Below are positions 11,603-30,520 of a stretch of 64,000 bases of DNA, piece by piece. Each line of letters opens with the position of its first letter. The stretch's first letter is position 1. The notes below the pieces were generated by a model. It was given only the letters and a program-made list of their open reading frames with translations. It was not told where the DNA came from and searched no databases. Position numbers and translations under genes: made by a program. This DNA comes from an uncultured Chthonomonadaceae bacterium (lineage in GTDB: Bacteria > Armatimonadota > Chthonomonadetes > Chthonomonadales > Chthonomonadaceae), in the NCBI GenBank assembly GCA_963835065.1, contig CAWIEK010000049.1, positions 416,001 to 480,000 on the forward strand, given 5' to 3'.

Positions 11603-13360
11603 ATGAGAAAACCATTGATGCCGGTTTGGTGCGTCCTGAGCGCGGCTGTCCTGAGTATGACAGGCATATCCGCTGTCCCGCAAACACGAGTAAAAACCGG
11701 TGTCGCGTCTATTCCGGTGAAACCCGGTAAATCGGGGGTTGCGTCCGTTCCGCAAACCATGACCTCGCCCCTGGGCCACCAACTTTCTCTCGTATGGCAC
11801 GATGAATTCGATGCTGTTCCCGACAGGGATGGCAAGCCGTATATTGACCGTTCCAAATGGCAGACGACGTTCTGGCAGGGTTCGAGCGAGCGGACGCTGT
11901 TCAGCAACGTCGAGGCGCAGTATTATGTGGACAAAGATTACAACGGCGAAGGCAGTATCCATCCCGAAGCCAACGGCACACTCAATCCTTTCTCCTTTGA
12001 AACGCCGGGTATTCTGACCATCAAGGCGTGGAAAACGCCCGAAGAACTGTGGCGCAAGTTTTACATGGGCGAACAGCGCCCGTTTGCTTCCGGCTTGCTG
12101 ATTTCTGACAGGAGGTTTACGTTCCAGTATGGCTATGTGGAAGGCCGGTTCAAACTGCCGGGCGCGCGCGGCGCGTGGCCGGCCTTCTGGCTGCTGGGCG
12201 ACGATCCGACCAAAGCCACCGAAGTGGAAGCGCACCAATGGGGGCCGGAAGTGGATGTGTTCGAGTTCTTCGGCCATCGCCCGACCAAGCACAGCGCGGG
12301 CATCATTGCCCGCGAAGGCGAGGAACTCCCCTGGAAATTCGGCTATAACGAAGTCGGCGTGGACATTTCCAAAGATTTCCACACCTGGGGGCTGGAATGG
12401 GACCCGGAAAACATGGTGTTCACTTTTGACGGCAAGGTGTGGGCAAGAAGCAAAACCGCGCCCTCCTTTAATCGCCCGATGTACCTGCTCATCAATCTGG
12501 CGGTGGGCGGGCAGTGGTACTCGCAGGAAATGGACGCCAACAAAACCCCCTACAAGCCCTGGCAGGTGGACGAAACTTCTATGCCCTGGAAGATGCAGTG
12601 CGACTATGTGCGTGTGTACCAGTCGAAAGACAACGCCGCGCAAATCGCCGCGTATCGCGCCAGAGACAAAGCGCTCAACAACCACCTGACCCGCGAAGTC
12701 TGGACGGACATACGCGGCAAACGTGTAGCCGATATTCCCCTTGCCGACAAACCCCACACCGTCACCTACCTGCGCGATTTCGAAGCGCCTACGAGCGTTG
12801 GCATCAACTACGGCACGCGCCTGCGCGGGTTTCTGACGGCTCCCATGACGGGAGATTACACCTTCTGGATTGCGGGGGATGACAACTGCGAACTGCGCTT
12901 GAGTACGGACGACAAGCCCGCGAACGCGGTAAAAATCGCAAGCGTCACATCGGGAGACGGCTACACGGGACGGCGCGAATGGAACAAATTACCCGAACAA
13001 AAATCAGCCCTCGTTCGGCTCGTGGCAGGCAAGCGCTACTACATCGAGGCGCTGCAAAAGCAGGATGTGGGTGGCGACAGCCTTTCCGTCGGCTGGCTCA
13101 AACCCGGTCAAACCGGGAATGCGCCGTCTGAAATCATACCCGCGTCCGTCCTTGCGCCCTGGGACAGTCAAACACTGCCAGCAAGACGCCTTAGAGCCTA
13201 TCCCAATAGGCCGGGGATTGAAAATCCCCGGCAGGAAAGTGCAAGCGTCTTTCAGACGCGAATTCGCGCCTATCGGGATAGGCTCTTAGCAGCCTCTTCT
13301 GCTGGTTACTTTCAGTACCAACCCCATTGGTATAGGCTCTCAGGGTTCGTAAATCTATAA
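11603..13360 (+). CDS. Secreted GH16 glycosidase with PA14 domain
   Basis: WHDEFD, WPAFWLL, EVDVFE catalytic motif, FHTWGLEW; PA14 part GDYTFWIAGDDN...GKRYYIEALQK. Confidence 0.9.
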   Translation: MRKPLMPVWCVLSAAVLSMTGISAVPQTRVKTGVASIPVKPGKSGVASVPQTMTSPLGHQLSLVWHDEFDAVPDRDGKPYIDRSKWQTTFWQGSSERTLFSNVEAQYYVDKDYNGEGSIHPEANGTLNPFSFETPGILTIKAWKTPEELWRKFYMGEQRPFASGLLISDRRFTFQYGYVEGRFKLPGARGAWPAFWLLGDDPTKATEVEAHQWGPEVDVFEFFGHRPTKHSAGIIAREGEELPWKFGYNEVGVDISKDFHTWGLEWDPENMVFTFDGKVWARSKTAPSFNRPMYLLINLAVGGQWYSQEMDANKTPYKPWQVDETSMPWKMQCDYVRVYQSKDNAAQIAAYRARDKALNNHLTREVWTDIRGKRVADIPLADKPHTVTYLRDFEAPTSVGINYGTRLRGFLTAPMTGDYTFWIAGDDNCELRLSTDDKPANAVKIASVTSGDGYTGRREWNKLPEQKSALVRLVAGKRYYIEALQKQDVGGDSLSVGWLKPGQTGNAPSEIIPASVLAPWDSQTLPARRLRAYPNRPGIENPRQESASVFQTRIRAYRDRLLAASSAGYFQYQPHWYRLSGFVNL

Positions 13361-13625: not shown

Positions 13626-13916
13626 AATTTTTAGACGGCTATGTAGGGCAAAAGGTTCGTTTATTTCGCGTTATTTGGGGTTTTTGTGTTCTGCTCAAAG
13701 CGTTTGTTGCTCACAAGGCAACAAACGCTTTTTGGTGTCAATGTCCTTGAATTATTGCCGTATGCAGAGGCGTGAAAAAGAAAAAGAAAAATTCTTTACT
13801 TGCGGTGCAACTAACTGTTGCGCAATCCAATCAATGAGTGTGAAGGACGCGGAATACACAACGATACGAACCAGCCGCGCCCACCAAGCAATTTTCAGAA
13901 ACAAGGCAACCACCTG

Positions 13917-14096
13917 ATGTTTGAAGCGAACCTACAACCGCAGACAACGCGCCGCAACGATTGGCAACCGCAACCCACTTTTCCGAGTTGCGATGGTCAG
14001 ATACGCTTTATTGGCCTATGTCAAAATACTGCCGCCTGCCTGCGCAATAATCGCAATAATCGTAAACGCCCCAATGGGACAGGAGGAAACGCTTAA
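13917..14096 (+). CDS. Putative 59-aa leader peptide of the tRNA array
   Basis: AAGG upstream of ATG 13917; ends ...LRNNRNNRKRPNGTGGNA*; stop codon lies in the loop of a 9-bp hairpin. Confidence 0.55.
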   Translation: MFEANLQPQTTRRNDWQPQPTFPSCDGQIRFIGLCQNTAACLRNNRNNRKRPNGTGGNA

Positions 14097-14163
14097 CCCG
14101 TTTCCTCAGCCAGCGAAAACTCTTCGCCCACTGTCCCAACAATAACCGGCGCAGTGGGCTTTT
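14075..14163 (+). promoter_or_regulatory. Attenuator: antiterminator versus intrinsic terminator
   Basis: TGGGACAG(14075-82)/CTGTCCCA(14131-38) and GAGGAAACG(14083-91)/CGTTTCCTC(14099-107) compete with terminator GCCCACTG(14126-33)/CAGTGGGC(14152-59)+TTTT. Confidence 0.65.
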
Positions 14164-14274
14164 GTATGCCTAAAATGCTCGTTTGTTCGGTGTTATATTG
14201 GTGTTCGGTATTCAGGTGTTCAGGCAATGCCTCTTCTCTAATGCCTAATACCTAATATCTAATGCCTTGTCCCT

Positions 14275-14346
14275 GCGCTCGTGGTGTACCGGTCAACATG
14301 CCTGCCTGTCGAGCAGAAGAAGCGAGTTCAATTCTCGTCGAGCGCG
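14275..14346 (+). tRNA. tRNA-Asp(GTC)
   Basis: Acceptor GCGCTCG/CGAGCGC; anticodon loop CT-GTC-GA; T-loop TTCAATT; G73. Confidence 0.9.
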
Positions 14347-14388
14347 TGAAGTTAGTTGATAGTAAATAGTTGATAGTTGATAGGCCAT

Positions 14389-14463
14389 GCCCTTGTAGCT
14401 CAGCGGATTCAGAGCATCGGGTTGCGATCTCGAAGGTCACAGGTTCGATCCCTGTCAGGGGTA
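14389..14463 (+). tRNA. tRNA-Arg(GCG)
   Basis: Acceptor GCCCTTG/CAGGGGT; TCGGG-TT GCG AT-CTCGA; T-loop TTCGATC. Confidence 0.9.
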
Positions 14464-14476
14464 TTGGGTTCGTTTT

Positions 14477-14496
14477 GCACCTTGATAACTGCATAG
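14477..14496 (+). promoter_or_regulatory. rRNA-type boxA-like antitermination motif
   Basis: GCACCTTGATAACTGCATAG resembles the (G)AACCTTGAAAACTG(C/A)ATA boxA motif of rRNA leaders and spacers. Confidence 0.55.
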
Positions 14497-14515
14497 TGAA
14501 CATTGTGTCTTGTTT

Positions 14516-14588
14516 GCGTCGGTGCCCGAACGGTTAAGGGAGCGGTCTGCAAAGCCGTATTGTGTCGGTTCAACTCCGACCCGGCGCT
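14516..14588 (+). tRNA. tRNA-Cys(GCA)
   Basis: Acceptor GCGTCGG/CCGGCGC; GCGGT-CT GCA AA-GCCGT; U73. Confidence 0.92.
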
Positions 14589-14672
14589 TGAAGGGAGTTG
14601 ATAGTTTTTAGTTGATAGTTGATAGACACGCGCTTTCCTATCAACTATGGACTATCAACTATCAACTGCTTC

Positions 14673-14745
14673 GGAAGCGTAACTCAACGGTTAGAGTATT
14701 CGCCTTTTAAGCGAAGGGCTGGAGGTTCAAATCCTCTCGCTTCCA
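14673..14745 (+). tRNA. tRNA-Lys(TTT)
   Basis: Acceptor GGAAGCG/CGCTTCC; TTCGC-CT TTT AA-GCGAA. Confidence 0.93.
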
Positions 14746-14867
14746 TGAGGAACGGTGTTCAGGTATTCAGGTGTTCGGTGTTCAGGTTAAATACCTGCTC
14801 AGGCGCGCTAACTTGTAGAAAAGTATTTCCGAACACCTGAATACCCGAATACCTGAATACCGAATGA

Positions 14868-14939
14868 AGGGGTGTAGTTCAACGGGAGAACGATGGCTTC
14901 CAATACCATCTGTTGCGGGTTCAACTCCTGCCGCCCCTG
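14868..14939 (+). tRNA. tRNA-Trp(CCA)
   Basis: Acceptor AGGGGTG/CGCCCCT; G73; ATGGC-TT CCA AT-ACCAT (C31-A39 mismatch). Confidence 0.85.
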
Positions 14940-14964
14940 TTTACGAAAAAGTGAGTTGCACAGC

Positions 14965-15038
14965 GCCGACCTAGCCCAATTGGTAGAGGCCGTTGGTTCA
15001 GAACTAACGGGTTGGGGGTTCGATTCCCCCGGTCGGCA
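14965..15038 (+). tRNA. tRNA-Leu(CAG) with short variable loop
   Basis: Acceptor GCCGACC/GGTCGGC; A73; GTTGG-TT CAG AA-CTAAC; variable region is only GGGTT. Confidence 0.85.
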
Positions 15039-15141
15039 TTAGGAGAGAGGTCAGGATTCAGGGGTCAGGGGTCAGTCACGACTTTCTGCCGGCAGGAACA
15101 CAGACTTTGGAATTGGGAGGGAACAGCAAGTAGGAAAGTAT

Positions 15142-15213
15142 GCCGACGTAGCTCAGTGGGAGAGCAGCTGTTTCGTAAACAGCAGGTCAGCGGTTCGAAT
15201 CCGCTCGTCGGCT
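15142..15213 (+). tRNA. tRNA-Thr(CGT)
   Basis: Acceptor GCCGACG/CGTCGGC; GCTGT-TT CGT AA-ACAGC. Confidence 0.95.
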
Positions 15214-15225
15214 TGGGCGTACAAA

Positions 15226-15296
15226 CGGGGTGTAGTGAAACGGAATAACGGCTTGCTTGGGACAAGCTATTACAGGTTCAATTCCTGTTACCCCGA
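15226..15296 (+). tRNA. tRNA-Pro(TGG)
   Basis: Acceptor CGGGGTG/TACCCCG; A73; GCTTG-CT TGG GA-CAAGC; weak D-stem. Confidence 0.85.
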
Positions 15297-15314
15297 TGAT
15301 TTCGTGTGTGCTGC

Positions 15315-15386
15315 GCGGGGGTCCTCTAACGGTTAGGAGACGTCTCTTTCAAGGACAAAACGCGGGTTCGACTCCCGTCCTCCGTA
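15315..15386 (+). tRNA. tRNA-Glu(TTC)
   Basis: Acceptor GCGGGGG/CCTCCGT; CGTCT-CT TTC AA-GGACA. Confidence 0.87.
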
Positions 15387-15469
15387 TGAGAAGAGGTTGA
15401 GGGTTGAGGGTTGAGAGTACCGGCAACGGCTACTTCTCTCATTCTCCACTCTCCACTTTCACTCAGTTT

Positions 15470-15543
15470 GCGCGAGTAGCTCAATCCGGTGGAGCGAACG
15501 CCTTACAAGCGAGGGGCTGCGGGTTCAAATCCTGCCTTGCGCA
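15470..15543 (+). tRNA. tRNA-Val(TAC)
   Basis: Acceptor GCGCGAG/CTTGCGC; loop CT TAC AA; anticodon stem has only 3 Watson-Crick pairs. Confidence 0.85.
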
Positions 15544-15564
15544 TTTAGTATGAGAATATAGTTT

Positions 15565-15637
15565 GCCTCCGAGGTCAATTGGAAAAGGCGTCACGCTTCG
15601 AACGTGGATACAGCAGGTTCGATTCCTGCCGGGGGCA
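15565..15637 (+). tRNA. tRNA-Arg(TCG)
   Basis: Acceptor GCCTCCG/CGGGGGC; TCACG-CT TCG AA-CGTGG; A instead of U at position 8. Confidence 0.85.
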
Positions 15638-15734
15638 TGGGTAGGGAGTAGGATGTGGGGAGTGGGGAGTAGGAAAAACAGGATATTACAGTACAGGTCT
15701 ACTCCCTACTGCCTACTCCCTAACCCCTATATTT

Positions 15735-15807
15735 GCAAGAGTGGCGCAATTGGTAGCGCGTTTCACTGCCGTCGAAATGGTTGCGGGTTCGACTCCCGTC
15801 TCTTGCA
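15735..15807 (+). tRNA. tRNA-Gly(GCC)
   Basis: Acceptor GCAAGAG/CTCTTGC; TTTCA-CT GCC GT-CGAAA; discriminator A. Confidence 0.85.
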
Positions 15808-15846
15808 TGAATTGTGTTGAGCCTTGTGTTTGGATGGTCTGCATTG

Positions 15847-15921
15847 GCCGGGCTAGCTCATGCTGGTTTGAGCGCACTTCTTATAAAGGTGAGGACGTGG
15901 GTTCAATTCCCATGCCCGGTA
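15847..15921 (+). tRNA. tRNA-Ile(TAT)
   Basis: Acceptor GCCGGGC/GCCCGGT; A73; CACTT-CT TAT AA-AGGTG. Confidence 0.88.
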
Positions 15922-15952
15922 TGAAGATGCAAAGATGGTACGGCGTTTCTGA

Positions 15953-16024
15953 TCCCCTGTAGCTCAATGGTGGAGCGTTCGGCTGTTAACCGAAGGGTTG
16001 CTGGTTCGAGTCCAGCCGGGGGAG
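15953..16024 (+). tRNA. tRNA-Asn(GTT)
   Basis: Acceptor TCCCCTG/CGGGGGA; G73; TTCGG-CT GTT AA-CCGAA. Confidence 0.95.
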
Positions 16025-16029
16025 TTTGC

Positions 16030-16100
16030 GCACCTGTCGCTTAATGGGAAAGCCCACTCCTGATAAGGGTGTCACGAAGGTTCGATTCCTTCCGGGTGCA
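16030..16100 (+). tRNA. tRNA-Ile(GAT)
   Basis: Acceptor GCACCTG/CGGGTGC; CACTC-CT GAT AA-GGGTG. Confidence 0.9.
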
Positions 16101-16214
16101 TGGGAATAGGGTTTTAAGGTTTTAGGGTTGTATGGTTTCAGGTGTTGGGGAATAAGTATTTGGGGAACGGTGAAGGGCGCGAGTTGTGGTTACGGATAGG
16201 TTTGAAGGGGATGC

Positions 16215-16286
16215 GCCGCAGTAGCTCAGTGGTAGAGCGCCATGCTGAAAACGTGGACGTCGTCCGTTCAACTCGGACTTGCGGCA
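16215..16286 (+). tRNA. tRNA-Phe(GAA), integration target
   Basis: Acceptor GCCGCAG/TTGCGGC; CCATG-CT GAA AA-CGTGG. Confidence 0.93.
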
Positions 16287-16287
16287 T
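16227..16287 (+). repeat. attL (61-bp direct repeat, 3' part of tRNA-Phe)
   Basis: Identical to 31490-31550 except T16279 versus C31542. Confidence 0.95.
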
Positions 16288-16402
16288 TGTTAGGGTTGTG
16301 CGTAGGTAGAGTACCCGCTCCTACCTGTGCGCGTTGCGGGTTTAAGCCGTGTCTCTACCCCGCCATGTTGCTGTCATTAAGCACTCTGAAAGGACAGCAA
16401 CC

Positions 16403-17398
16403 ATGCTTCTTTACACCCTGATTGGCGACTATCTGCAAGCCCTGCGCGTGGAACAAGGCGCGGCGGCGACCACGCAGAAAGGCTATACCGCCCAAATTCG
16501 CCACTTCCACACCTGGCTGACAGCAAACGGCTACCCGGAACCGATACTTGCCGACTTCAACGCGCCCGTTTGCCGCCGCTTCCTGTACTATTTGAGCGGC
16601 AAAGGTTTGAGGCCGCGCAGCATCCGTTCGTACTTCCACCCCCTCAAAGGCTTCGGCGAATTCCTTATCCGCAACGGCGTTCTTACCGACAATCCGGCAA
16701 AGACTGTCACCCTCCCGAAGAAGGACGCCGCCCTACGCAAGACGATCACGGACGAAGAAATCGCCCTCCTGCTGGACGCCTGCCACCGCAACCGCAACCC
16801 GCGCCGCGTGGCGTTGTGTCGCGCTGTTTTGTCTGTTCTGGTCTATGGAGGCTTGCGCCGCTCGGAACTGTGCGATCTGCGCCTGGAGGATGTGACGCTT
16901 CCCGACCCGAAGGACAACAAGAGCAAGGGCAGCCTACTTGTGCGTTGTGGCAAAGGCAGCAAGAGCCGTCGTATCTACCTGCCCGAGGAAGCCCTAACCG
17001 CGCTGAAAGAATGGCTGGCGCTGCGTCCGAAGAACTGCAAGCATCCCTATCTGTTCGTCTATGACGTGAACCGCCGACTTGGACATACAAGCCTGCAAAT
17101 GCTTGTGGAGGATGTGAAACATCAAGCCGGACTTGCGGGGCATGACAACATCAAGCCCCATTCGATACGTCACTGGCGGGCAACCGACCTGCTACGGAGT
17201 GGCGCCAACATTCGGGACGTGCAGGCGTTTCTAGGCCACAGCAGCCTGACGGTTACGGCTATCTACTGCCATTCGTCGGAGGAGCAACTAAGGAACATCA
17301 GCGAACTGACGAACCTGCACAGCCAAACGCAGTCGCCGCCCGATCCACGCCTCGACCGGCAGGACGCGCGCCCCCGCTTGCGCCGGATTGCCCGCTGA
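16403..17398 (+). CDS. int: Tyrosine recombinase/integrase
   Basis: YGGLRRSEL (R), GKGSK (K), HSIRH, LGHSS and TAIY catalytic set; XerC/D-like N-terminal domain. Confidence 0.95.
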   Translation: MLLYTLIGDYLQALRVEQGAAATTQKGYTAQIRHFHTWLTANGYPEPILADFNAPVCRRFLYYLSGKGLRPRSIRSYFHPLKGFGEFLIRNGVLTDNPAKTVTLPKKDAALRKTITDEEIALLLDACHRNRNPRRVALCRAVLSVLVYGGLRRSELCDLRLEDVTLPDPKDNKSKGSLLVRCGKGSKSRRIYLPEEALTALKEWLALRPKNCKHPYLFVYDVNRRLGHTSLQMLVEDVKHQAGLAGHDNIKPHSIRHWRATDLLRSGANIRDVQAFLGHSSLTVTAIYCHSSEEQLRNISELTNLHSQTQSPPDPRLDRQDARPRLRRIAR

Positions 17399-17427
17399 AA
17401 AAGCAGACACCCGTATGCTTATTGGGG

Positions 17428-17472
17428 TAAAATAAGGGCAGGGTTCTTTGCGGGAACCCTGCCCTTATTTTA
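17428..17472. terminator. Bidirectional intrinsic terminator after the integrase
   Basis: Perfect 19-bp stem TAAAATAAGGGCAGGGTTC/GAACCCTGCCCTTATTTTA with a 7-nt loop. Confidence 0.85.
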
Positions 17473-17479
17473 GTGCCGT

Positions 17480-18625
17480 GTGCAGGCGAATGAAGCGATT
17501 AACACCCTCATTCTACCCGCATCCCGGCGCACTCGTCAACACTCGACGGAGGTTTGCGCTATGTTCTACTCCAAAAAAGCCAAAGCCACTTTGGACCGCA
17601 TCAAGTATTTCCAGACGAAGAAACAGGAAGGCTACGCCCGACGGCAAAAACTGCTTGCACCAGACAGACTACCGACAAGCACACCTGATGCTGTCGCACA
17701 AGCGCACATTGACCAGCGCGGTATTTACTTTGAAAACAGGATTCTTTTTTGGGAATGGTTTATCCAAACGGAAATCCACTTTGATCTGGAAACTGGAACG
17801 TTCACCTGTCCTATCGTTACTCCCCTTTTGGTACATGCTTGCGCGAACGCGGGGGAAATTCTACACATGTCTTATGCAGAGTATCGCGCCTACCGGCAAA
17901 TCGTGGAGGCTCCGCCGCACCATACATTGGCGAAGAAGTTTAACAGAGCGATGAAAGCGGCAATGGATGCCTCCGATGCCGCCAGTGAGCAACTCGTCTT
18001 TCAACAGATGTACGCAATAACCGAAGCCCTGTCTAAGCAGCACCCAGCATACAAGCCGACGCATGAAATCGAACATGACGCCTTAACTGGATGGATTGCG
18101 TCTCAAAAGGAACGATGGCATGTTCCGAGAGTAAACCGCCAACGCCCCGCGAACTTGGAAGCCGAAGTCCTGGAAGAAATGCGGAGCAGTGTCTTCCAGA
18201 TGCAACCGCGCGATCTACCTTTCTTTCCTGTCGCATTTGGTGAACCTTCCTTTATCAACCTGCCTACTCTTGTACGTGGAAGTGTGGCGAAGACTAACCA
18301 ATCAGACGAAGATAAGTGGAAAGATCATAATCCCGCGACACAGGCAAAATTGCGCGAAATGACAGAGCCGGCAGATGAAACGGAAGAAGTTCGGCTCCGT
18401 ATCGGGAACCGTCAAGCGTTTGAGGCTTTGCGGCCTCACGCGAGACTTAATCGGCGTGAGAATGAGTACTTTACCTGTTTGCTGGAAAACCCGGAACTCT
18501 ACTTCAATTCTTATGGCGGCAATCTGGCCGTGTCTAAGCGGTTGGGATGGACACCTGAGAATGTGCGCCGGGTGAAAAGTGATTGCCTTGCCAAACTCAC
18601 TGCCGCCGCGCAAAAGCATCCGTAG
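17480..18625 (+). CDS. Hypothetical protein with C-terminal sigma-region-4-like HTH
   Basis: C-terminus LNRRENEYF...AVSKRLGWTPENVRRVKSDCLAKL resembles a sigma r4 HTH. Start may instead be ATG 17561. Confidence 0.5.
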   Translation: MQANEAINTLILPASRRTRQHSTEVCAMFYSKKAKATLDRIKYFQTKKQEGYARRQKLLAPDRLPTSTPDAVAQAHIDQRGIYFENRILFWEWFIQTEIHFDLETGTFTCPIVTPLLVHACANAGEILHMSYAEYRAYRQIVEAPPHHTLAKKFNRAMKAAMDASDAASEQLVFQQMYAITEALSKQHPAYKPTHEIEHDALTGWIASQKERWHVPRVNRQRPANLEAEVLEEMRSSVFQMQPRDLPFFPVAFGEPSFINLPTLVRGSVAKTNQSDEDKWKDHNPATQAKLREMTEPADETEEVRLRIGNRQAFEALRPHARLNRRENEYFTCLLENPELYFNSYGGNLAVSKRLGWTPENVRRVKSDCLAKLTAAAQKHP

Positions 18626-18712
18626 CCGCAACAAACTTTTCCAAATATTTTTTCAGAAAGTTCTCACACTTGCCCCCTCCTCGCCGCCTACTGGTGAAGG
18701 AGGGATTTTTTT

Positions 18713-18913
18713 ATGCCAGCTATGCTACCGACACGCCGACTGGTTTGCATTTACGAGGGCAATCTTATCGGCCAGATGCAGCTTCTCGCAACTTCTTGCG
18801 ACCCGGAACTTATTACCATCGCCATGCAGAAGATGTTGCCCCATACGAACAGGCCAATGCGCAGGCCGCGAACCCGCAAACGCCGAGGCAAAGAAAATGG
18901 CCGGAATTGTTGA
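18713..18913 (+). CDS. Small hypothetical protein
   Basis: Strong SD AAGGAGG before the ATG; basic C-terminus. Confidence 0.45.
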   Translation: MPAMLPTRRLVCIYEGNLIGQMQLLATSCDPELITIAMQKMLPHTNRPMRRPRTRKRRGKENGRNC

Positions 18914-18989
18914 CAGCAATTCCGGCCAAGCAGAACGGACACAAACACGAGACAAACGGCCTTTGGACAAAGGCAAATTGAGGTGAACC

Positions 18990-19610
18990 ATGAACATTAT
19001 GACTGACAAGTGTGCCCTTGTCAACACGCCCCCGACCCGCAATATACGGCGGGACATTACCACTCCTCCGACGCACGTAGCGAAACCGGAAAGCGTCATT
19101 TTGCAGGCTTCTGCCGCCCATATCGAAACGGCGCGCGTCCTTGCGGGTATGCGTACATCGCTGCACGACGGACGGCGCAAGCCGCATGAAGATTTAGGCG
19201 CGGATGCCAACCGTGAGGCCGATTATGTGGGACTTCTCGCCGAATTGACGATCCTGATCGCGCTCATCGGCGCAGGCTTTCGCCCCACCCAATTTACGCT
19301 GTTGGCAAACCCGACGCCAAGCGGTCCCGACTTCGCTCTGAACGGCAAAACCTTCAATGTCAAGGCGTTGCCGATGGGCAAGCGCTTTCTGTGTGTCAAC
19401 GAACGTCAGCGCATCGATCCGCGCCAGCATAGCGATTTTTACTTGCCCATGCAGTTCTTGACGTCAACAACCTTACGCGTATTGAAGCCAATTGAGGCCG
19501 CTGCTGTTGCCACCTGGCCGTTGCGTGAAATGCACAGCGCCTACCGCTCGACAGACATTGCGGCCCTTTCCGCCTTGCACGATTTGAAGGAGGTGGCGCA
19601 ATGCCGGTAA
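18990..19610 (+). CDS. Hypothetical protein (possible PD-(D/E)xK-like fold)
   Basis: GAGG SD; GLLAE...PDF...FNVK pattern; overlaps the next start. Confidence 0.55.
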   Translation: MNIMTDKCALVNTPPTRNIRRDITTPPTHVAKPESVILQASAAHIETARVLAGMRTSLHDGRRKPHEDLGADANREADYVGLLAELTILIALIGAGFRPTQFTLLANPTPSGPDFALNGKTFNVKALPMGKRFLCVNERQRIDPRQHSDFYLPMQFLTSTTLRVLKPIEAAAVATWPLREMHSAYRSTDIAALSALHDLKEVAQCR

Positions 19611-19879
19611 AATTCCCCTTCGGCAAATTCAACGGCGTGGCCGTTGATAACATTCCGTCGTGGTACTTGACGTGGGCACTGAGCAACCTGACTGACCTGG
19701 ACACCGCGCTGCGTGACGACATGCAGCGCGTATTGCAGCAGCGGAAACCAGTACGCAAGCCCGCCCCACAAAAGCCTGTCTCTCGTAAGCCCGTTGGGAA
19801 GCGACAGGGCCAGCCCTCAAAACCAACCCCGGAAGCAATTCAGGCATCCATTCGCTTAATGAAGAAGGGAGGCGCGTAA
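19601..19879 (+). CDS. Small PFGK-motif (DUF3820-like) protein
   Basis: FPFGKFNG...IPSWYLTW motif; AGGAGG SD. Confidence 0.7.
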   Translation: MPVKFPFGKFNGVAVDNIPSWYLTWALSNLTDLDTALRDDMQRVLQQRKPVRKPAPQKPVSRKPVGKRQGQPSKPTPEAIQASIRLMKKGGA

Positions 19880-21544
19880 ATGGCAACCCTCCTTATGGAC
19901 GCCGTGAGCAAGCTGCGCGCTGAACCCGATCCTAATCACCCCGGCGATTTTCTGGCGGACTGCCCGGACTGCTGCCAGCGCGCGCTGCAATTGTGCAAGG
20001 ACGCCGAAAGCAATCTTGCCGCCTACTGCCCGAACTGCGGCAAAGGCGCCGGTCCCAAGTTTCGCAAGATGTTTCCCACAATGCCGTCCCTTCCCAAGCC
20101 CTTACCGCGCTCGACGCCTGACCCGCCACCGGCAGAAGCGGAATTGAACCGAGAACTGGCCGGCCTGCCTACAACCGATATGGGCAATGCCGAGCGACTG
20201 GTGAAACGCTTCGGCGCGGACTTGCGCTTCTGCCATAGTTTCGGAAAGTGGCTGATATGGGACGGCAAGCGCTGGAAGCCCGACGACAGCAGCGCGGCCA
20301 TTCGCCTGGCAAAGCGGACGGTACGCCTGATCCACGCGGAAATTGCCAGCATTGACGTGACGGATACGGACTCGGATAAAGCAATGGTAAAGGCGCTCAC
20401 GGCTCACGCGAAGAAGAGCGAGGCGAAAGAACGGCTGATGGCAATGCTGAAACTGGCGGAAAGCGAGGCGGAAGTTTCTGTCACCAGTGACGCGCTCGAC
20501 GCCGACGAGTGGCTGCTGAATGTCGCCAATGGAACGCTCGACTTGCGCACTGGAACCCTGCACCCGCATGTTCGGGCGGACCTGATTACTAAATGCACTC
20601 CCATCCATTATGCCCCGGTGACGTGTCCCTTGTGGACGAAGTTCTTAACCCGCGTAATCCCCGATGAAGCCGTACGCGACTATGTACAGCGCGCGTGTGG
20701 CTATGCCCTGACAGGGCGCACGTCGGCGCAGTGCGTGTTCTTCTTGTATGGCAACGGCAAGAACGGCAAGTCCGTGTTCACGGGCGTATTAGAACACTTG
20801 CTTGCCGAGTATTGGGGCAAGACGCGGGCAGAAACCTTGATGCAAAAACGCGATCAAGGCAATATCCCTAACGATGTGGCCGCGCTGCGCGGGTTGCGCC
20901 TGTGTACCGTGAGTGAAATCAACAACGGCCAGCGCCTGAACGAAGCCCTGATTAAAGACTTGACCGGCGGCGATACGCTGTCTGCCCGCTTTCTGCATCA
21001 GGAGTTTTTCAACTTCAAACCACAGTTCAAATTGTGGCTATACGGAAACCACAAGCCCGAAGTGAAAGGCACAGACGAAGGTATCTGGCGGCGGCTGCGC
21101 TTGATCCCCTTCAATGTGACCATCAGCGAGGAGGAGAAAGATACGGAACTGCCGGAGAAGCTGCGCGGCGAACTGTCGGGCATTCTTGCCTGGGCGGTAC
21201 GTGGGTGCATGGAGTGGCAGCGCGTGGGACTGGCCGAGCCGGAACCAGTCCGTCAGGCGACGCAAGCCTATCGGCATGAAATGGACAACACCGCGCAATT
21301 TCTGGCAGAGCGCTGCACAGATGCGCCGGACGAATGGGGCTTCTGCGCTGAATTTGGCGGCAATCTGTACGAGGCGTATGAGACGTGGTGCAAGCTAACC
21401 GGCGAACACGCCTGCACCAAACGCGCGTTTGGGGATATGTTGACGAAGAAAGGGTATGCGAAGAAGCGCAACGCCAAAGGGCAGCAGTATACCGGAATCC
21501 GGCTGTTGTCCGAGTCGGAAATGCAGGCAAGCGCCTGTGTATAG
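19880..21544 (+). CDS. Phage/plasmid P4-family primase/SF3 helicase with N-terminal Zn finger
   Basis: CPDC...CPNC; TDMGNAERL, WLIWDGKRW, LNVANGTLDL (D5_N); Walker A GNGKNGKS; IKDLTGGD; GIWRRL. Confidence 0.93.
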   Translation: MATLLMDAVSKLRAEPDPNHPGDFLADCPDCCQRALQLCKDAESNLAAYCPNCGKGAGPKFRKMFPTMPSLPKPLPRSTPDPPPAEAELNRELAGLPTTDMGNAERLVKRFGADLRFCHSFGKWLIWDGKRWKPDDSSAAIRLAKRTVRLIHAEIASIDVTDTDSDKAMVKALTAHAKKSEAKERLMAMLKLAESEAEVSVTSDALDADEWLLNVANGTLDLRTGTLHPHVRADLITKCTPIHYAPVTCPLWTKFLTRVIPDEAVRDYVQRACGYALTGRTSAQCVFFLYGNGKNGKSVFTGVLEHLLAEYWGKTRAETLMQKRDQGNIPNDVAALRGLRLCTVSEINNGQRLNEALIKDLTGGDTLSARFLHQEFFNFKPQFKLWLYGNHKPEVKGTDEGIWRRLRLIPFNVTISEEEKDTELPEKLRGELSGILAWAVRGCMEWQRVGLAEPEPVRQATQAYRHEMDNTAQFLAERCTDAPDEWGFCAEFGGNLYEAYETWCKLTGEHACTKRAFGDMLTKKGYAKKRNAKGQQYTGIRLLSESEMQASACV

Positions 21545-21645
21545 TCAGGGCGTTGTGTATAGTCGTGTATAGTGTGCGGAGGTTTTTTGTTTCAGCGCGT
21601 CTCGTGAAGTGAAAAACATGCACTAACTATACACGACTATACACA
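21536..21645. repeat. Iterons / putative replication origin
   Basis: GTGTATAGT three times forward and twice reversed; perfect 20-bp inverted repeat 21554-21573/21626-21645, right after the helicase gene. Confidence 0.75.
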
Positions 21646-21772
21646 CCCTACACAGAACACCGTTCTTTTGGGCAAAGAGAAGGCAGATGCCGCCCATCTA
21701 CAAAACATACGGACGTGGGTACATCAGGCACTTGAGGCCGAACTGATGCAGGGAGAACAAAGCAAATTTAGT

Positions 21773-22348
21773 TTAGCGGATACGGCGGAAATATGACAGC
21801 TCCCTGTTGAACTCTCGCAGGGTAAGTACTTGCCCGTCCGCGCTGACTTCAAAAGGCCAGGCCGTTGTGTCTCTTTCAATAAACTCCGCTTGTTGCACGG
21901 AAGGAGGGCCAACCAGCAGTTTGTCACCGGAGACATGGTACTCCCTTATTATGGTAGTCATACCTATAGGGGGTACAAACTCCTCTTTGCTTTGGACAGG
22001 TTCTTGGTAGGACAAAGTATGCTCATTAAAAGTGAGCATATTGTCAAAGACAAAGTTACTTTGTGACGTACTTATCCATACACCTATCAATCTATTCTGT
22101 GATGAGTGAGAGCGCATGAAGAACCATACCGAACCAATTCCCAGAACCACCAAGAGGACGCATAGTGGCTTTAGAAAACCTATCGCGCGAATGGTGGTTG
22201 GCTGTGTTGGTCTTTGATCGGGCGTTAGCATTTGCGTAGGAGGCGAGGCCGGAGGCGCGGTGAACACCGTTCGGTACTGGTGTCCGCATTGCGCACAGTG
22301 CGGAGCGTCGAGGGGAGCAGGGGTAGCGCAACGGGGACATTGTTTCAT
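21773..22348 (-). CDS. Zinc-ribbon + TM protein (AT-rich cargo)
   Basis: CPRC...CAQC followed by one TM and a soluble domain. Confidence 0.7.
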   Translation of the reverse strand: MKQCPRCATPAPLDAPHCAQCGHQYRTVFTAPPASPPTQMLTPDQRPTQPTTIRAIGFLKPLCVLLVVLGIGSVWFFMRSHSSQNRLIGVWISTSQSNFVFDNMLTFNEHTLSYQEPVQSKEEFVPPIGMTTIIREYHVSGDKLLVGPPSVQQAEFIERDTTAWPFEVSADGQVLTLREFNRELSYFRRIR

Positions 22349-22512
22349 GGTTTGCTTCTCCTGATGGGACTAAAAGGGCTTCACCAGATGCTCAAGCCTG
22401 TCTGTAATTGGGTTGGTGGTTCAGATTTCATAAAAGCAGTATAGCACAGGCGTCAAGCCCGACAAACATATACATGTGTACACAATCTTGTGTACAGAAA
22501 GCAGGTCACCGA

Positions 22513-22872
22513 ATGGCAGAATACCCCGTTTTTGATGCCGCAGGCTTCCGGCGTTTTGTGGAGCAGGATGGCCCCATCATCCACGACGCCATTCACAACC
22601 TGAACAATGTGGGCGAACAGCTGCAGGCCGCGCTGCAAGCCGCGCCCGCGTTGCTGGAAGGACGAACGCCACAAACGGCGAACCGGTGTGCCGACTATTT
22701 GCAGCAGATCGCCGTGACGTTGGCAGCGATCCAGCACGGATTGCTTGTTCTTGACCGCGACTTGGGCAGCATCGGCCTGGGTGTCAATCACGCGGCATTG
22801 GGACTGAGAAGCGAAGCCTTGCAAGCGGCACAGGCGCAACTACGACAACCGAAAGGACGGAGGACACGCTAA
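22513..22872 (+). CDS. Helical hypothetical protein, coupled to the following gene
   Basis: ATG 22513; TAATG stop/start overlap with 22872. Confidence 0.6.
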   Translation: MAEYPVFDAAGFRRFVEQDGPIIHDAIHNLNNVGEQLQAALQAAPALLEGRTPQTANRCADYLQQIAVTLAAIQHGLLVLDRDLGSIGLGVNHAALGLRSEALQAAQAQLRQPKGRRTR

Positions 22873-25142
22873 TGGCAGGCGAGAAAACCATGTTAGGCGT
22901 GGATGTGAATGTCGCGGCTCCCAACGCGCGGGAGTTGTTCGGCGACTTGCTGCGATGGGTGGAACAACTCAAGCAGGCCGCCAATGTGCAGATCAACATT
23001 GGCGTACCGGGCAATGTGGGCGCGGGAACCGGCGCGGGCGGCGCGGCGCAGGCGGTACGCAACTCCACGCAGGCCGGCAGTCCGGGCGGCAGTGGGTGGA
23101 GTCCTGCGGGGATGTACACCGGTGCGCCTGCCGCCATGAACAACAGCCAGCGGGCGTATGATGCGGCAAAGGGCGTAGGCTTTCAGGGCAGTTACAACGA
23201 GTGGAAGCAAGCGGAGTTTGAACAGGGGCAGGGACGGCGGCAATCGGCGGCGGAGCGCGAAAACGAACGTCGGCAGCAGCAGGCAGACTGGGCGCACGAC
23301 AACGGGATCAAGCGCCAGCAGGCGGATGAAGCGTGGCTGCTTAGAGACCGGGATCGTGGTCTCAAGCAAATGGACGCCGACTATGCGTGGCTGGACAAGC
23401 AGGACGCGGTTGCCGCCAAAGCCCGCGTTCCCTTCTCGGACGGACTTGGCAACCGGATGCGGCAGGGCTTCAATGTCCTCAACCCGATGGCCGCCAACAA
23501 CGACCTATACACGCGCGGCCAGCAGCGGTATGCTGCGCAAGCGGTGGTTGGACTCGCTACGCACACTATCGGAGGTGAACTGTCGCTGTATGCCAACAAC
23601 ACGGCCACTGGCGATTACAACCCCATGCAGGCGGCAGGACTGGCCGGCGCCGCCGCCGGTGGCTTTCTCGGACTGGCGGCAGGTGCGATAATCGGCTCCG
23701 TTGCGCCGGTTCCACAGCCAGGACTCGGCGCACTCATTGGGATGCAGGGCGGCATGACGACCGGAAGCGCGTATGCGCAGTCTGTCATGGCTCCCTTTAT
23801 GCGGACGCACAGTATGGCGCTGACGCTCTCGTCGATTGCCGCGCGCGAAGGCCGCAATGTCTACGACATGATCGGCGGGCATCACCACCGGATCGACACG
23901 CAGACCAGCGGATTGCAGCATCTGTCCGAAGAAATCAGTTTTCACGGCAAGACTGACCGTGAAATCTTAGGGATTAAGGCAGGACTCTACACCGGCACGG
24001 ACATTATCAGTGGGCCACAACTGGCGCAAACGTATGCCACGCTTGGCAGTGGCCTGCTGGCGGCGGGCAACGATCCGCGCCGCGCCTACGATTTATCGGC
24101 GAACTTAGCACGAAAGTACGGGCAGGCTGCGCCGCAGATGGCGACAATGGCGGCAGGCGTGATTGCGCAGACCGCGAAGTGGGGTGATAATCGGGGCGAC
24201 CTGATGCTGGCAACAGGACCGGAAGCCTTTGGGGCGTATGCGGACGCGACGGGCAAACCCGACTTCACGAAAGAACAACTGCAAGGCTATGGCGACGTGC
24301 AGCGCGCCGACTACCAGATGCAGGTAGCGGAGACAAACCCGCGCGGGCGGGGACAGGCCAAGCAAATCGTGTACGACGCGAAACTGAAAGCCCTGACGCC
24401 CTTTGGAACGGACACGTTGGCGTATCGGCAGGCGCAACAAGGCCGACGGCAAGCGGTATTGCAGGGCTACGAGGAACGCGACATTACCGCCTACGATATT
24501 CCGATGGCGGGACTGGAAGCCGAAGAACGCATCCATCAGGCCTTACCCTATCAGCCGGGCTACAACTATGGCGCGGCTTTAGAGCGCATGGGACTGCGGG
24601 CGAACCAGTTGAACACCGTCGGCAAGCGGTATCAATCCCTCATGGCAAAGGGACAGCTAAGCGAAGAAGAACAGAAGGCCACGTACAGCCAGTACCAGGG
24701 GATGCGGGTCGCGCAGGCGCAGGACGTGGCGGTTCTGGCGGAAGGCGGCGAAGACCGGGCGATGCTCCTCGCGGCAGGACGGGGTAACAGCCATAACCGC
24801 TACGACAGCGAACAGCAGGCGTCTATGGCGGTCTTCAACATCGGCCACCCAAGAAGAAGTCACGGCGCGATCAATGGGCAGCAACTTGCCATGCAGAACG
24901 CTTTCCTGCACAAGTACGATACGCCCGACTTCGATGCCGCCGGCGCGGCGATGCCGAAGGATAGAATGACAGGGATGGACTCTACGCAGGTCGTGGGCTT
25001 GCTGTCGCGCATTGCCGAAGCCGTCGAAAGCCGGGGCAAAGGCATGGGCAGCAGCGTCAATCCGGGTGAGGCGCGCGGCATGGTGACGGGGGCGCTTGCG
25101 CTCACTGATATTCTTGGTATGCCCCCGAAGAACACGAACTAA
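22872..25142 (+). CDS. 756-aa tape-measure-like or DNA-pilot-like protein
   Basis: Ala/Gly/Gln-rich, coiled-coil stretch, glycine-zipper hydrophobic segment GAAAGGFLGLAAGAIIG, and a C-terminal LLSRIAEAV motif like TMP ends; GGAGG SD. The function is inferred. Confidence 0.55.
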   Translation: MAGEKTMLGVDVNVAAPNARELFGDLLRWVEQLKQAANVQINIGVPGNVGAGTGAGGAAQAVRNSTQAGSPGGSGWSPAGMYTGAPAAMNNSQRAYDAAKGVGFQGSYNEWKQAEFEQGQGRRQSAAERENERRQQQADWAHDNGIKRQQADEAWLLRDRDRGLKQMDADYAWLDKQDAVAAKARVPFSDGLGNRMRQGFNVLNPMAANNDLYTRGQQRYAAQAVVGLATHTIGGELSLYANNTATGDYNPMQAAGLAGAAAGGFLGLAAGAIIGSVAPVPQPGLGALIGMQGGMTTGSAYAQSVMAPFMRTHSMALTLSSIAAREGRNVYDMIGGHHHRIDTQTSGLQHLSEEISFHGKTDREILGIKAGLYTGTDIISGPQLAQTYATLGSGLLAAGNDPRRAYDLSANLARKYGQAAPQMATMAAGVIAQTAKWGDNRGDLMLATGPEAFGAYADATGKPDFTKEQLQGYGDVQRADYQMQVAETNPRGRGQAKQIVYDAKLKALTPFGTDTLAYRQAQQGRRQAVLQGYEERDITAYDIPMAGLEAEERIHQALPYQPGYNYGAALERMGLRANQLNTVGKRYQSLMAKGQLSEEEQKATYSQYQGMRVAQAQDVAVLAEGGEDRAMLLAAGRGNSHNRYDSEQQASMAVFNIGHPRRSHGAINGQQLAMQNAFLHKYDTPDFDAAGAAMPKDRMTGMDSTQVVGLLSRIAEAVESRGKGMGSSVNPGEARGMVTGALALTDILGMPPKNTN

Positions 25143-25417
25143 TGCAGGGGGAAGCGGGAACCTTGCGGGTTTGTGCGCTTCTCCTGCCATTGCTGTAGGA
25201 GCGCGGCAAATTCGGGAGACTCATACGCCAATGCCTGCGTTGCCAGGTGAATATCCCGAATTTCCATCATCTTGAACACAAGGGCGTCGGAGGCTTCGCG
25301 CCCTTGTATCCTACCTTCGGAAGCGTCCTGCGCCAGTTGTTGAAAGTCATCGTAGAGCGCGACCGTCTGTGCCATCAATTGTTCAAACTTCGCTTTCAGT
25401 TCTCGTTCTAAATCCAT
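25139..25417 (-). CDS. Hypothetical helical protein
   Basis: GGAGG SD; 92-aa ORF. Confidence 0.6.
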   Translation of the reverse strand: MDLERELKAKFEQLMAQTVALYDDFQQLAQDASEGRIQGREASDALVFKMMEIRDIHLATQALAYESPEFAALLQQWQEKRTNPQGSRFPLH

Positions 25418-25638
25418 AGCAGCACCTCCGGCTTATGCCAATGTTAGATTTTCGCCCGTCCTGTACAGTCGTATCTTGGCAGGACAGGCAATTTATCGTG
25501 TACTTCTCCCGAGTTTTTGTGCCTTCTGGCACGGTTCGCACGGTTGTCTTTTTCTACACTCCCCGCCGCCACAACGCGCCGGAAACGTCGTATTTCCTCC
25601 CGGCACAACGTTCGGCACAATTTGTGCCAGTTTGGACA

Positions 25639-25944
25639 CTACAACGCTTGACGAAGGGCGCGCAGGGCGGCTTCCACGCGGGCGCGCATAGCGGCGTCGA
25701 GGGTGAGGGCGTCGAGTTGGGGCGTGACCTTGTTCCAAAAGTCGCGCTGTGCGTAGGGGCAGCGGGTGCGCGTGGCCTGGACACTGCCCAGATACTTCAC
25801 GACGCGCTGGCGGGGCTTGCCGTGGACGCGCGTGTTCTGCACCAGCACGGCGGAAAGCGTGTCTTTGCAGCCCTTCTCGCCGTTTGGCGTGGCGGCGCTC
25901 CACGTTTGGCGCGTTCCCTGTCTGTGTTTCCAACGAATGTACAT
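25639..25944 (-). CDS. Small protein resembling the IS1634 transposase N-terminal motif
   Basis: MYIRWK...LVQNTRVHGKPRQRVVKYLG; AAGGAG SD; no DDE domain. Confidence 0.6.
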   Translation of the reverse strand: MYIRWKHRQGTRQTWSAATPNGEKGCKDTLSAVLVQNTRVHGKPRQRVVKYLGSVQATRTRCPYAQRDFWNKVTPQLDALTLDAAMRARVEAALRALRQAL

Positions 25945-26054
25945 GCGGTTTCTCCTTTCTGCTTTGCTACTACGGGCAGGTGGAAAGGAGAGGTAATTGC
26001 CCTGTGAACGGCGTAGAGTCGCGCACAGGGCAACGTGATTCGATTACGGCCTAT

Positions 26055-26414
26055 CTACGCGGCCAGCGTGTCCGCGACGTGGGCCAGCACAAGGGTGCAG
26101 CAGGTGTCACTCGCTACCAGCATCTTGCCGGCCAGCGCGCGCACCTTCGCGGCGAAGTCTTCATTTCCAACATGTGGGGCAGAAACACCGTTTTGTACAG
26201 ATGCAGGGCTTTGCGCCCGCGAACAGTTCACCACGCCGAAGTCCGGGAAGTCTTTGCCAACGGTGAACGGGTTGCCGAAGTAACCATCACAGCGCAGGCG
26301 GTCGTCTCTCCTGCCGACAAAGACGTGATCGCTGTATTCCGGCAACTCCTGCCAGCCGTAGGGCAGGCTGGTGAGGTTTACGACGCGGGTTTGCGGGTTC
26401 GTTGCGGTGTGCAT
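26055..26414 (-). CDS. DUF4326-like protein
   Basis: VFVGR...YFGNPF...LAGKML...C...H pattern; AAGGAG SD. Confidence 0.6.
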   Translation of the reverse strand: MHTATNPQTRVVNLTSLPYGWQELPEYSDHVFVGRRDDRLRCDGYFGNPFTVGKDFPDFGVVNCSRAQSPASVQNGVSAPHVGNEDFAAKVRALAGKMLVASDTCCTLVLAHVADTLAA

Positions 26415-26486
26415 ACTTCTTCTTCTCCTTGTGCAGTGGGGTGTCAGGCCGGGAATGGGTACGGCTCCCGGCAGGCCGTGCGGGTG

Positions 26487-26882
26487 TCAGCGTCGAGTAC
26501 GCTTGTGCGTCATGTGGCGGATAGGTCGGCCTATGAGCGCGTCGGTAGACACAGCGGCTTGCGTGAGCAGGACGGGCGCGGGCGGCGCGTGGTCTACCAG
26601 CAGAGCCGAAGCGTAGTCCAGAAACTCGGCCTGTCGCTCCAGCATCAGCGCGACGGCCTGCTCCTTGTCGTCCGTGTCCGGCTCGGCGGCTCCGACTTCG
26701 ATGAAGGCGTACCCCAGGCGCATGTACAGGCCGTCAAAGAGTGTGTCGTCTTCCACGCGCTTGACGGGCGCGGGCGTGTCTGGCGGTTTGGGCGCGTCGG
26801 GCGTCGGCAGGCAGGGCGCAACCGGATCGTTCCAGTTCGGCTTGGGCGGGCGCGTCGGGCGGGGCAATTGTTTCGTGTGCAT
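26487..26882 (-). CDS. Hypothetical protein
   Basis: AGGAG SD; part of a co-oriented small-gene run. Confidence 0.55.
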   Translation of the reverse strand: MHTKQLPRPTRPPKPNWNDPVAPCLPTPDAPKPPDTPAPVKRVEDDTLFDGLYMRLGYAFIEVGAAEPDTDDKEQAVALMLERQAEFLDYASALLVDHAPPAPVLLTQAAVSTDALIGRPIRHMTHKRTRR

Positions 26883-27002
26883 GGTTCTTCTTCTCCTGTG
26901 TTGGTGGTAGAATGGAACCGGCAGGGCGTCTCACTTCTTGCCGGTTCGCAGGGTGTCGGGCGTAGGGAAGTTTGCCGCTTTCCTATGCCCGCTTTGTGTG
27001 TC

Positions 27003-27302: not shown

Positions 27303-27383
27303 GTTCCGTATTCTCCGTAGGGTTGGTGTTGTGGCAGGGTAGCGAACTGGATACCCTGCCGGGTTGTCTGGCAATGGTGGCGA

Positions 27384-30484: not shown

Positions 30485-30520
30485 AACTGTGCAGTCTATT
30501 CCCTGCCGTGTGCGTGACTC

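Follow-up and report, generated by a model that had tools for sequence, protein, structure and literature searches.

A candidate whiB7-type, translation-sensing attenuator ahead of a supernumerary tRNA array in soil Armatimonadota

In the erm and ARE-ABCF leader peptides, which are short and carry specific arrest motifs, ribosome stalling frees an antiterminator or a ribosome-binding site, and the leader ORFs of the amino-acid operons comprise roughly 14-32 codons. The tRNA genes of bacteria are thought to be controlled at their promoters, by growth rate, by the stringent response or by a repressor, as in Anabaena. Among the characterised systems, the one closest to the locus reported here, compared by description, is the whiB7/wblC leader of Actinobacteria, in which efficient translation of an upstream ORF (uORF) leads to a Rho-independent terminator and many translation stresses lead to an antiterminator and to read-through (PMC10274678). 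As that source describes it, the whiB7 uORF is comparatively long and variable between species, its composition sets which shortages are sensed, and it is enriched in alanine (PMC10274678). Furthermore, the trn L-array of Anabaena sp. PCC 7120 is described as a set of supernumerary tRNAs that stays silent until an impairment of translation induces it; its control is ascribed to tandem 9-nt direct repeats (TGTWNWWNWNNWGTANYNWA or a 21-nt form) lying over the -10 box and the start site, and the strings 'attenuat', 'terminator' and 'leader' are all absent from the main text of that article (PMC8421152).

We analysed a stretch of 64,000 nucleotides (the window) from the 8.0 Mb genome of a Chthonomonadaceae bacterium of the phylum Armatimonadota, in which a leader unit, composed of a conserved block, an ORF and hairpins, occupies the space between a strong hairpin at 13697-13735 and a tRNA array. 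From the comparison of related sequences and from folding models, we conclude that the region 13804-14168 is probably a whiB7-type, ribosome-dependent transcription attenuator, which would gate a supernumerary array of 16 tRNAs by the speed at which the leader is translated, and we put the probability of this reading at roughly 0.52. The upstream neighbour of the leader is a glycoside-hydrolase-16/PA14 gene (11603-13360, assigned with Pfam). An initial annotation of the window had described a 59-codon ORF, helices of 8 and 9 bp, a terminator with its TTTT and a gap of 110 nt before the first tRNA, and every one of these elements was recovered at its position; the first gene of the array, tRNA-Asp, starts at 14274, which is 110 nt past the T-run of the terminator. 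The features of the locus are as follows:

13697..13735: strong hairpin followed by a T-run, between the GH16/PA14 gene and the leader unit
13804..13852, + strand: conserved promoter-like or operator block, consisting of GGTGCAACTA, 12 bases, TCCAATCAAT, 2 bases and GTGTGAAGGACGCGG
13917..14096, + strand: leader ORF (uORF) of 59 codons plus TAA, from the ORF list and the comparison of three genomes
14075..14082, + strand: antiterminator 5' strand UGGGACAG, within the final uORF codons, from the minimum-energy fold
14083..14107, + strand: hairpin 1, 9 bp, with the UAA stop in its loop, from the fold
14113..14127, + strand: hairpin 2 (GCGAA/TTCGC), 5 bp, enclosed by the antiterminator helix
14131..14138, + strand: antiterminator 3' strand CUGUCCCA / CTGTCCCA, from the fold, with CTGTCC invariant in all three genomes
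14126..14168, + strand: intrinsic-terminator-like hairpin GCCCACTG/CAGTGGGC with inner pairs, then TTTTGTATG; a putative terminator
14164..14194, + strand: conserved block 3' of the terminator, with a consensus beginning GCCTGAATTGCTCGTTTG, kept in all three genomes
14274..16286, + strand: array of 16 tRNAs, predicted with ARAGORN and scoring 50-73 bits with Rfam

Upon searching 61 relatives and 42 genomes of the family with BLAST, we found homologues of the leader only in G002 and G001, which are the two other species of the genus, and in both of them the leader precedes the same, homologous array. The three carriers are related soil bacteria. The arrangement of uORF, antiterminator and terminator upstream of homologous arrays, whose conservation the initial annotation had put forward as a check, is kept in all three species. 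The upstream genes differ among the window, G002 and G001, and the homology starts about 30 nt before the conserved block at 13804-13852. Additionally, a contig from a public run (X2, record 9) spans 13784-14195 at about 84% identity and provides a fourth, partial witness, and the known spread of the unit is therewith one genus, represented by three genomes and one contig. The conserved block, when used to scan genome contigs, led back to the two known congeners only; a metagenome scan gave four loci, all without tRNAs and about as many as expected by chance, and scans of viral contigs gave 0 and 8 loci, none of them with tRNAs. Across 401 genomes of the phylum, BLAST with leader and array yielded single tRNA-sized matches only, mostly to tRNA-Thr. 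The BLAST search with the leader also gave a 24-nt match in another genome, G017, between sufB and sufC.

The array holds 16 tRNAs in 2.0 kb, or 17 if a displaced Ser-GCT is counted, and these are arranged head to tail in the order Asp, Arg, Cys, Lys, Trp, Leu, Thr, Pro, Glu, Val, Arg, Gly, Ile-UAU, Asn, Ile, Phe. The array of G002 comprises 16 tRNAs in identical order and that of G001 comprises 22. Fifteen of the 16 array anticodons are also encoded elsewhere among the 75 tRNA genes of the genome, making these genes spare copies, and the locus is an L-array in the sense of PMC8421152, that is, a long array of supernumerary tRNA copies. The sole anticodon unique to the array is that of tRNA-Ile(UAU); since the genome has tilS (178.5 bits, with the cut-off at 93.6), a lysidine tRNA probably reads AUA as well. 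The likeness to the Anabaena L-array lies in the long array of spare tRNAs, and the physiological logic proposed here is the same. The two loci differ in their surroundings, in that no HNH endonuclease gene lies upstream here and the GH16/PA14 gene is found instead. When at most one mismatch was allowed, the Anabaena operator motif was not found in the leader, and the window as a whole contained 1 and 0 matches to its two forms, the lone match, at 43030, being within chance expectation.

At -45.1 kcal/mol, the fold of 14040-14175 is more stable than chance would give: its z value is -4.28, and among 200 dinucleotide shuffles none equalled it. In this minimum-energy fold, 14075-14082 (UGGGACAG) pairs with 14131-14138 (CUGUCCCA) over 8 bp, forming the antiterminator helix, which encloses both a 9-bp hairpin with UAA in the loop (hairpin 1, in which 14083-14091 pairs with 14099-14107 around a loop of 7 nt) and the 5-bp hairpin 2. 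The strand at the end of the uORF, GGGACAG, is complementary to CTGTCCC, and the latter overlaps the 5' arm of the terminator, whose stem is formed by GCCCACTG (14126-14133) and CAGTGGGC (14152-14159) and is followed by TTTT (14160-14163). The trinucleotide CTG at 14131-14133 is common to the antiterminator 3' strand and the terminator 5' arm, and the pairing GGGACAG:CTGTCCC and the pairing GCCCACTG:CAGTGGGC with its U's are predicted to exclude each other.

When the three genomes are compared, the terminator hairpin is the consensus structure of the three sequences. Taken alone it folds with -18.1 kcal/mol in the window, -17.9 kcal/mol in G002 and -24.5 kcal/mol in G001, and of the 24 cells given by eight stem pairs in three genomes none is unpaired, one pair showing a compensatory change from A-U to G-C. 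Its loop is long, exceeding the limit of 8 set in a simple terminator scan, which is why the scan missed it, and the U-tract behind it is broken up in both the window and G001. The base of the hairpin 1 stem is kept in G001 with one compensatory change from G-C to A-U, and hairpin 2 is weakened in G002 and unrecognisable in G001. The antiterminator strands GGGACAGGAG and CTGTCC are invariant in all three genomes, amid a divergence of 33-45%; as none of the seven pairs (7/7) ever varies, this helix is without covariation support. A search of the leader against Rfam returned no family, the best match, the sole one at E<=1, reaching 16.3 bits against a threshold of 50, which is at chance level. 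Overall, the leader structure is real and conserved.

We then compared the energies of the two alternative conformers, computed from GGGACAGG to the end of the terminator stem. In the window the conformers are isoenergetic, with -33.3 kcal/mol for the antiterminator and -33.3 for the terminator, whereas the corresponding values are -31.5 and -33.8 kcal/mol in G002, and -28.2 and -35.9 kcal/mol in G001. The probability of the terminator was obtained from partition functions over the whole leader under a 33-nt ribosome mask, with a footprint, assumed by the analysis, of 18 nt 5' and 14 nt 3' of the first base of the A-site codon, and with a stalled ribosome represented by codons 20-48. For the window this probability is 0.02 with no ribosome, 0.95 with the ribosome at the stop and 0.00 with the ribosome stalled at codons 20-48; for G002 it is 0.03, 0.97 and 0.03-0.27, respectively; and for G001 it is 0.97, 0.98 and 0.93-0.97. 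Masked folding thus predicts a clean switch by ribosome position in two of the three species, the window and G002. In G001 the terminator is favoured at equilibrium under every ribosome mask, and the antiterminator is favoured transiently only, in growing transcripts, with a probability of up to 0.99; a switch in G001 would need kinetic trapping. The alternative folds that the initial annotation envisaged are predicted to act as a ribosome-dependent switch in the window and in G002, and not in G001, where the terminator always wins at equilibrium.

Taken together as a mechanism, these elements would work as follows. Transcription would start at the conserved block 13804-13852. A lead ribosome keeping pace with the polymerase would reach the UAA and, with 18 nt between the first G of GGGACAG and this stop, would cover GGGACAG; it would also open hairpin 1. 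With CTGTCCC left free, the terminator would form and transcription would stop at about 14163, leaving the array off. If the ribosome lagged or stalled within roughly the first 48 codons, or if none were loaded, GGGACAG would pair with CTGTCCC as soon as the latter was made, the 5' arm of the terminator would be blocked and the polymerase would continue into the tRNAs. Possible causes of such a lag include scarce charged tRNA, cleaved tRNA and ribosome-targeting drugs. The three-strand logic of antiterminator versus terminator resembles that of the amino-acid-operon attenuators (trp, his, leu, thr), as do the placing of the stop, by which a terminating ribosome would cover the antiterminator 5' strand, and the stretch of about 65 nt that separates the stop codon from the terminator's end. 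The locus differs from these attenuators in having no regulatory codon run, in its putative target, which is a set of tRNA genes, and in the length of its leader ORF, which is 56-59 codons. There is no upstream strand 1 to pair with GGGACAG, so an untranslated leader is predicted to read through and not to super-attenuate.

The question of where transcription begins bears on the alternatives. The block at 13804-13852 varies little, if at all, among the window, G002 and G001; no other part of the unit is so well conserved, and each genome has a single copy of it, always ahead of the array. We infer that it is a promoter. The best sigma-70 match within 13740-13916 reaches 7/12, and the block is unlike the consensus; upon comparing the block by eye with the sigma-54, sigma-70 and ECF-type consensus sequences, none was found to fit, and its arrangement of AAC, about 17 bases and TCAAT bears at most a possible resemblance to an ECF-type promoter. 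By the same sigma-70 measure, 30 of the 59 tRNA genes outside the array have a match of at least 10/12 within 160 nt upstream, a score reached by 10 of 2000 random 160-mers. In the leader, in the spacer between terminator and tRNAs, and in the array, the sigma-70 matches reach at most 7-9/12 in all three genomes, the conserved block at 14164-14194 has no sigma-70-like promoter above 8/12 in any of them, and the + strand within the array has no terminator-like site and no sigma-70-like promoter. A promoter downstream of the hairpin, which the initial annotation had named as a finding that would speak against attenuation, was thus not encountered in sigma-70-like form in either the spacer or the array. 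As far as the sigma-70 scan tells, the array appears to depend on transcription through the leader from a non-consensus promoter.

The same observations could be read as a constitutive, leaky terminator, behind a leader that may or may not be translated, which keeps a cryptic spare array low; an alternative sigma factor or a repressor would then act at the upstream block to provide the regulation, and GGGACAG:CTGTCCC would play no sensing role. We regard this as unlikely, though it is the alternative that survives best. Such an arrangement would suit the strong conservation of the block 13804-13852 and its dissimilarity to the near-consensus sigma-70 promoters of the housekeeping tRNA genes, and the promoter-level control of the Anabaena array offers a parallel, at least as that system is described (PMC8421152); however, if the repressor were Anabaena-like, the lack of the Anabaena operator motif in the leader would count against it. 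The folding results divide in a similar manner, since a terminator favoured under all conditions in G001 and an antiterminator without covariation are compatible with a leaky terminator, whereas the isoenergetic conformers of the window, the invariance of both strands of the alternative pairing in sequences that have otherwise diverged, and the constant 18-nt offset between stop and strand are not readily so. Preserving a reading frame through indels would, moreover, serve no purpose if the terminator were merely constitutive.

That the frame is preserved follows from the comparison of the leader ORFs. The uORF runs from the ATG at 13917 to the TAA at 14094-14096; its start, ATGTTTGAA, is kept in all three genomes, and its frame is the sole one open in all three, with 59, 59 and 56 codons. 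From the ATG to GGGACAGG there are 159, 159 and 150 nt, every one a multiple of 3, and the stop codon keeps a constant offset, beginning 18 nt past the first G of GGGACAGG in each genome. In G001, seven of the eight bases between GGGACAGG and the stop differ, yet the 18-nt offset stays. Between the window and G002, the ORF shows 0 gaps in 180 positions at 33% substitution, and the flanks show five single-base gaps in 213 positions. In the X2 contig there are eight single-base indels outside the ORF and, inside it, one 3-base deletion only, and the substitutions listed, which extend up to 14051, create no stop in the ORF. The length changes of the uORF are -9 and -3 nt, set against single-base indels that are common outside it. 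A further contig (X3, record 17, depth 3.9) has one gap within 13958-14135, which may be a frameshift or an error.

In contrast to the frame, the encoded peptide appears free to change. The codon differences between the window and G002 comprise 4 synonymous and 31 non-synonymous ones, as would be expected if translation itself is what matters, and the substitutions per codon position number 25, 16 and 18. The peptide shares 29 of 59 residues with that of G002 and has little beyond MFE and GTG in common with that of G001, the conserved residues coincide with the helix strands at the nucleotide level, and the peptide has no Pfam family and no homologue in a protein search. This suggests selection on the reading frame and not on the protein, and a kept frame with a free peptide is the pattern of a regulatory uORF, which argues against a functional small protein.

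Some properties of the ORF are compatible with its being incidental to a structured RNA without coding function, either a 5' leader or a small RNA, such as an element for pre-tRNA processing or stability, a reading that we consider quite improbable. The Shine-Dalgarno sequence is weak, consisting only of AAGG, AGG or GGA at about -14 to -11, a long spacing that is also used by other genes of the window. Stop codons are scarce in this sequence, the window has a second open frame (13921-14145), and the chance of an open frame is not low, at 0.20 for G002 when the window is taken as given and at 0.14-0.25 when the interiors are shuffled; the absence of selection on the peptide and the significantly stable fold would likewise be expected of a structured RNA. 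On the other hand, only the ATGTTTGAA frame is open in 3/3 genomes, the length of the ORF changes in multiples of three where the surrounding sequence tolerates single-base indels, the stop keeps its place with respect to the helix even where the sequence has changed, and the Rfam search, as given above, matched no known structured RNA family. The second frame, 13921-14145, was rejected as an alternative ORF, being interrupted by stops in both G002 and G001, and a longer ORF starting at TTG 13818 was rejected in turn, as G002 has a stop within it. An independent gene for a small protein (56-59 amino acids), with its own terminator and placed ahead of the array by chance, is very improbable, for although the conserved start, the preserved frame and a terminator directly after the ORF fit such a gene, the low peptide identity, the excess of non-synonymous changes, the lack of any family or homologue, the coincidence of the conserved residues with the helix strands and an array without a recognisable promoter of its own all count against it.

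Having weighed these alternatives, we return to the ribosome-dependent attenuator and to what its leader might sense. At 14043-14069 the uORF of the window contains CGC AAT AAT CGC AAT AAT CGT AAA CGC, which encodes R-N-N-R-N-N-R-K-R; its counterpart in G002 reads R-G-C-G-N-N-C-K-C, and in G001 it is absent. The initial annotation had seen in this run both an R/K-x-R/K arrest motif of the macrolide type and a specific stall site built from codons that the array tRNAs decode. The first proposal is not supported, as the R-K-R, the sole +x+ motif in the relevant place, is conserved in neither G002 nor G001, which sets the locus apart from the erm and ARE-ABCF leaders, and the comparison does not support the second, since the run is neither conserved nor enriched. 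Array-cognate codons, in a set that also took in ATG with a small effect on the counts, make up 37/59, 39/59 and 32/56 (63%, 66% and 57%) of the three leaders against 56% in the long ORFs of the genome, which is no enrichment, and a matching of leader codons to the array tRNAs was accordingly rejected. A specific stall site or a codon-matched loop is thus unsupported. Of the 20 amino acids, 17, 18 and 19 occur in the three leaders, with His, Val and Tyr lacking in that of the window; at P = 0.92, 0.74 and 0.31 against open shuffles these numbers are not above chance, and the idea of a leader built to hold all 20 amino acids was rejected because this diversity is at chance level. Feedback through a rare ATA codon and the array-only tRNA-Ile(UAU) was also considered, and is weakened by the presence of tilS; the in-frame ATA codons of G001 are, furthermore, placed elsewhere. 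No regulatory codon run is conserved in the leaders of the three genomes.

Attenuators of the whiB7-type subclass, however, need no single enriched codon. The likeness to whiB7 consists of a long uORF that varies between species and of a choice between terminator and antiterminator that is predicted here to depend on translation. The differences are that the target of whiB7 attenuation is a transcription factor, whereas here it would be a set of tRNA genes, whose products act on the very process that is sensed; that whiB7 belongs to Actinobacteria and this locus to Armatimonadota; and that the whiB7 uORF is alanine-enriched, whereas the present one shows no enrichment. The leader may possibly be a general sensor of decoding speed: with 17-19 of the 20 amino acids represented in its ORF, it would report general decoding speed and not the supply of one amino acid. 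We hold, tentatively, that this could amount to a self-correcting tRNA supply, in which the sampler ORF would serve as a decoding speedometer, a lag would release the spare tRNAs, and faster leader translation would then turn the array off again.

In a full-text search of the literature, which did not reach most subscription journals, no paper on an attenuator or uORF preceding a tRNA array came up. The novelty likely lies in a translation-sensing attenuator logic like that of whiB7 being placed before a spare tRNA array in Armatimonadota, as far as sequence comparison and folding indicate. If this is true, tRNA genes would be controlled in a new way, through translation itself, and it would offer a mechanism for the puzzling "cryptic" long tRNA arrays. 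Translation would then gate tRNA synthesis, providing a direct feedback between decoding speed and tRNA supply.

Upstream of the leader ORF (13917-14096), we observe a perfect 14-bp hairpin at 13697-13735, lying between an A-run and a T-run, which looks like a bidirectional terminator that closes the glycoside-hydrolase-16/PA14 gene and shields the leader of the array from transcription arriving from upstream. G002, which, like G001, is another species of the same genus with a homologous leader and tRNA array, has a related hairpin. Directly 3' of the terminator that lies between the leader ORF and the array, a block at 14164-14194 (consensus GCCTGAATTGCTCGTTTG) is kept in all three genomes. 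We found no sigma-70-like promoter in this block, which could belong to the terminator as its distal portion, or serve as a site of processing or binding.

The spacer 5' of tRNA-Asp, the first array gene, is occupied at 14195-14270 by dispersed repeats of approximately 7 nt (GGTGTTC, CTAATGC/CTAATAC and GTTGATA), which also fill gaps between the tRNA genes, for example at 14352-14385 and 14592-14665. Sequence matching 14200-14275 recurs at more than 40 further places in the genome. The corresponding spacer of G001 lacks the approximately 7-nt repeats.

Among the array tRNAs, tRNA-Ile with anticodon TAT (15847-15921) is the only one without the same anticodon elsewhere in the genome, which nevertheless encodes tilS; tRNA-Ile(TAT) is also found in the arrays of both G001 and G002. 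The last array gene, tRNA-Phe, has an integrative element of approximately 15 kb sitting within it (16287-31549), with the 3' part of tRNA-Phe (approximately 60 nt) duplicated at approximately 31490-31549. The genes located in and after this element are:

16349-17398, tyrosine integrase, carried by the element
19880-21544, D5-type primase/helicase, carried by the element
31633-31719, tRNA-Ser(GCT), after the tRNA-Phe 3' repeat

In G001 the array continues uninterrupted into Ser-GCT, Ala, Gln, Met, Leu and Ser, and therefore the insertion has severed Ser-GCT from the array's transcription unit in the window. G002 carries an insertion at the same site, but a shorter one.

Among the 75 tRNA genes of the genome containing the window, ARAGORN reported, outside the window, one tRNA with anticodon TTA, which would read UAA, as well as a tRNA-SeC and a tRNA-Cys with anticodon ACA. 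Genome-wide, a near-perfect TTGACA-17/18-TATAAT/TATACT promoter is found 10-75 nt upstream of approximately half of the non-array tRNA genes (30 of 59), and therefore the promoters of Armatimonadota, a little-studied phylum, look classically sigma-70-like.
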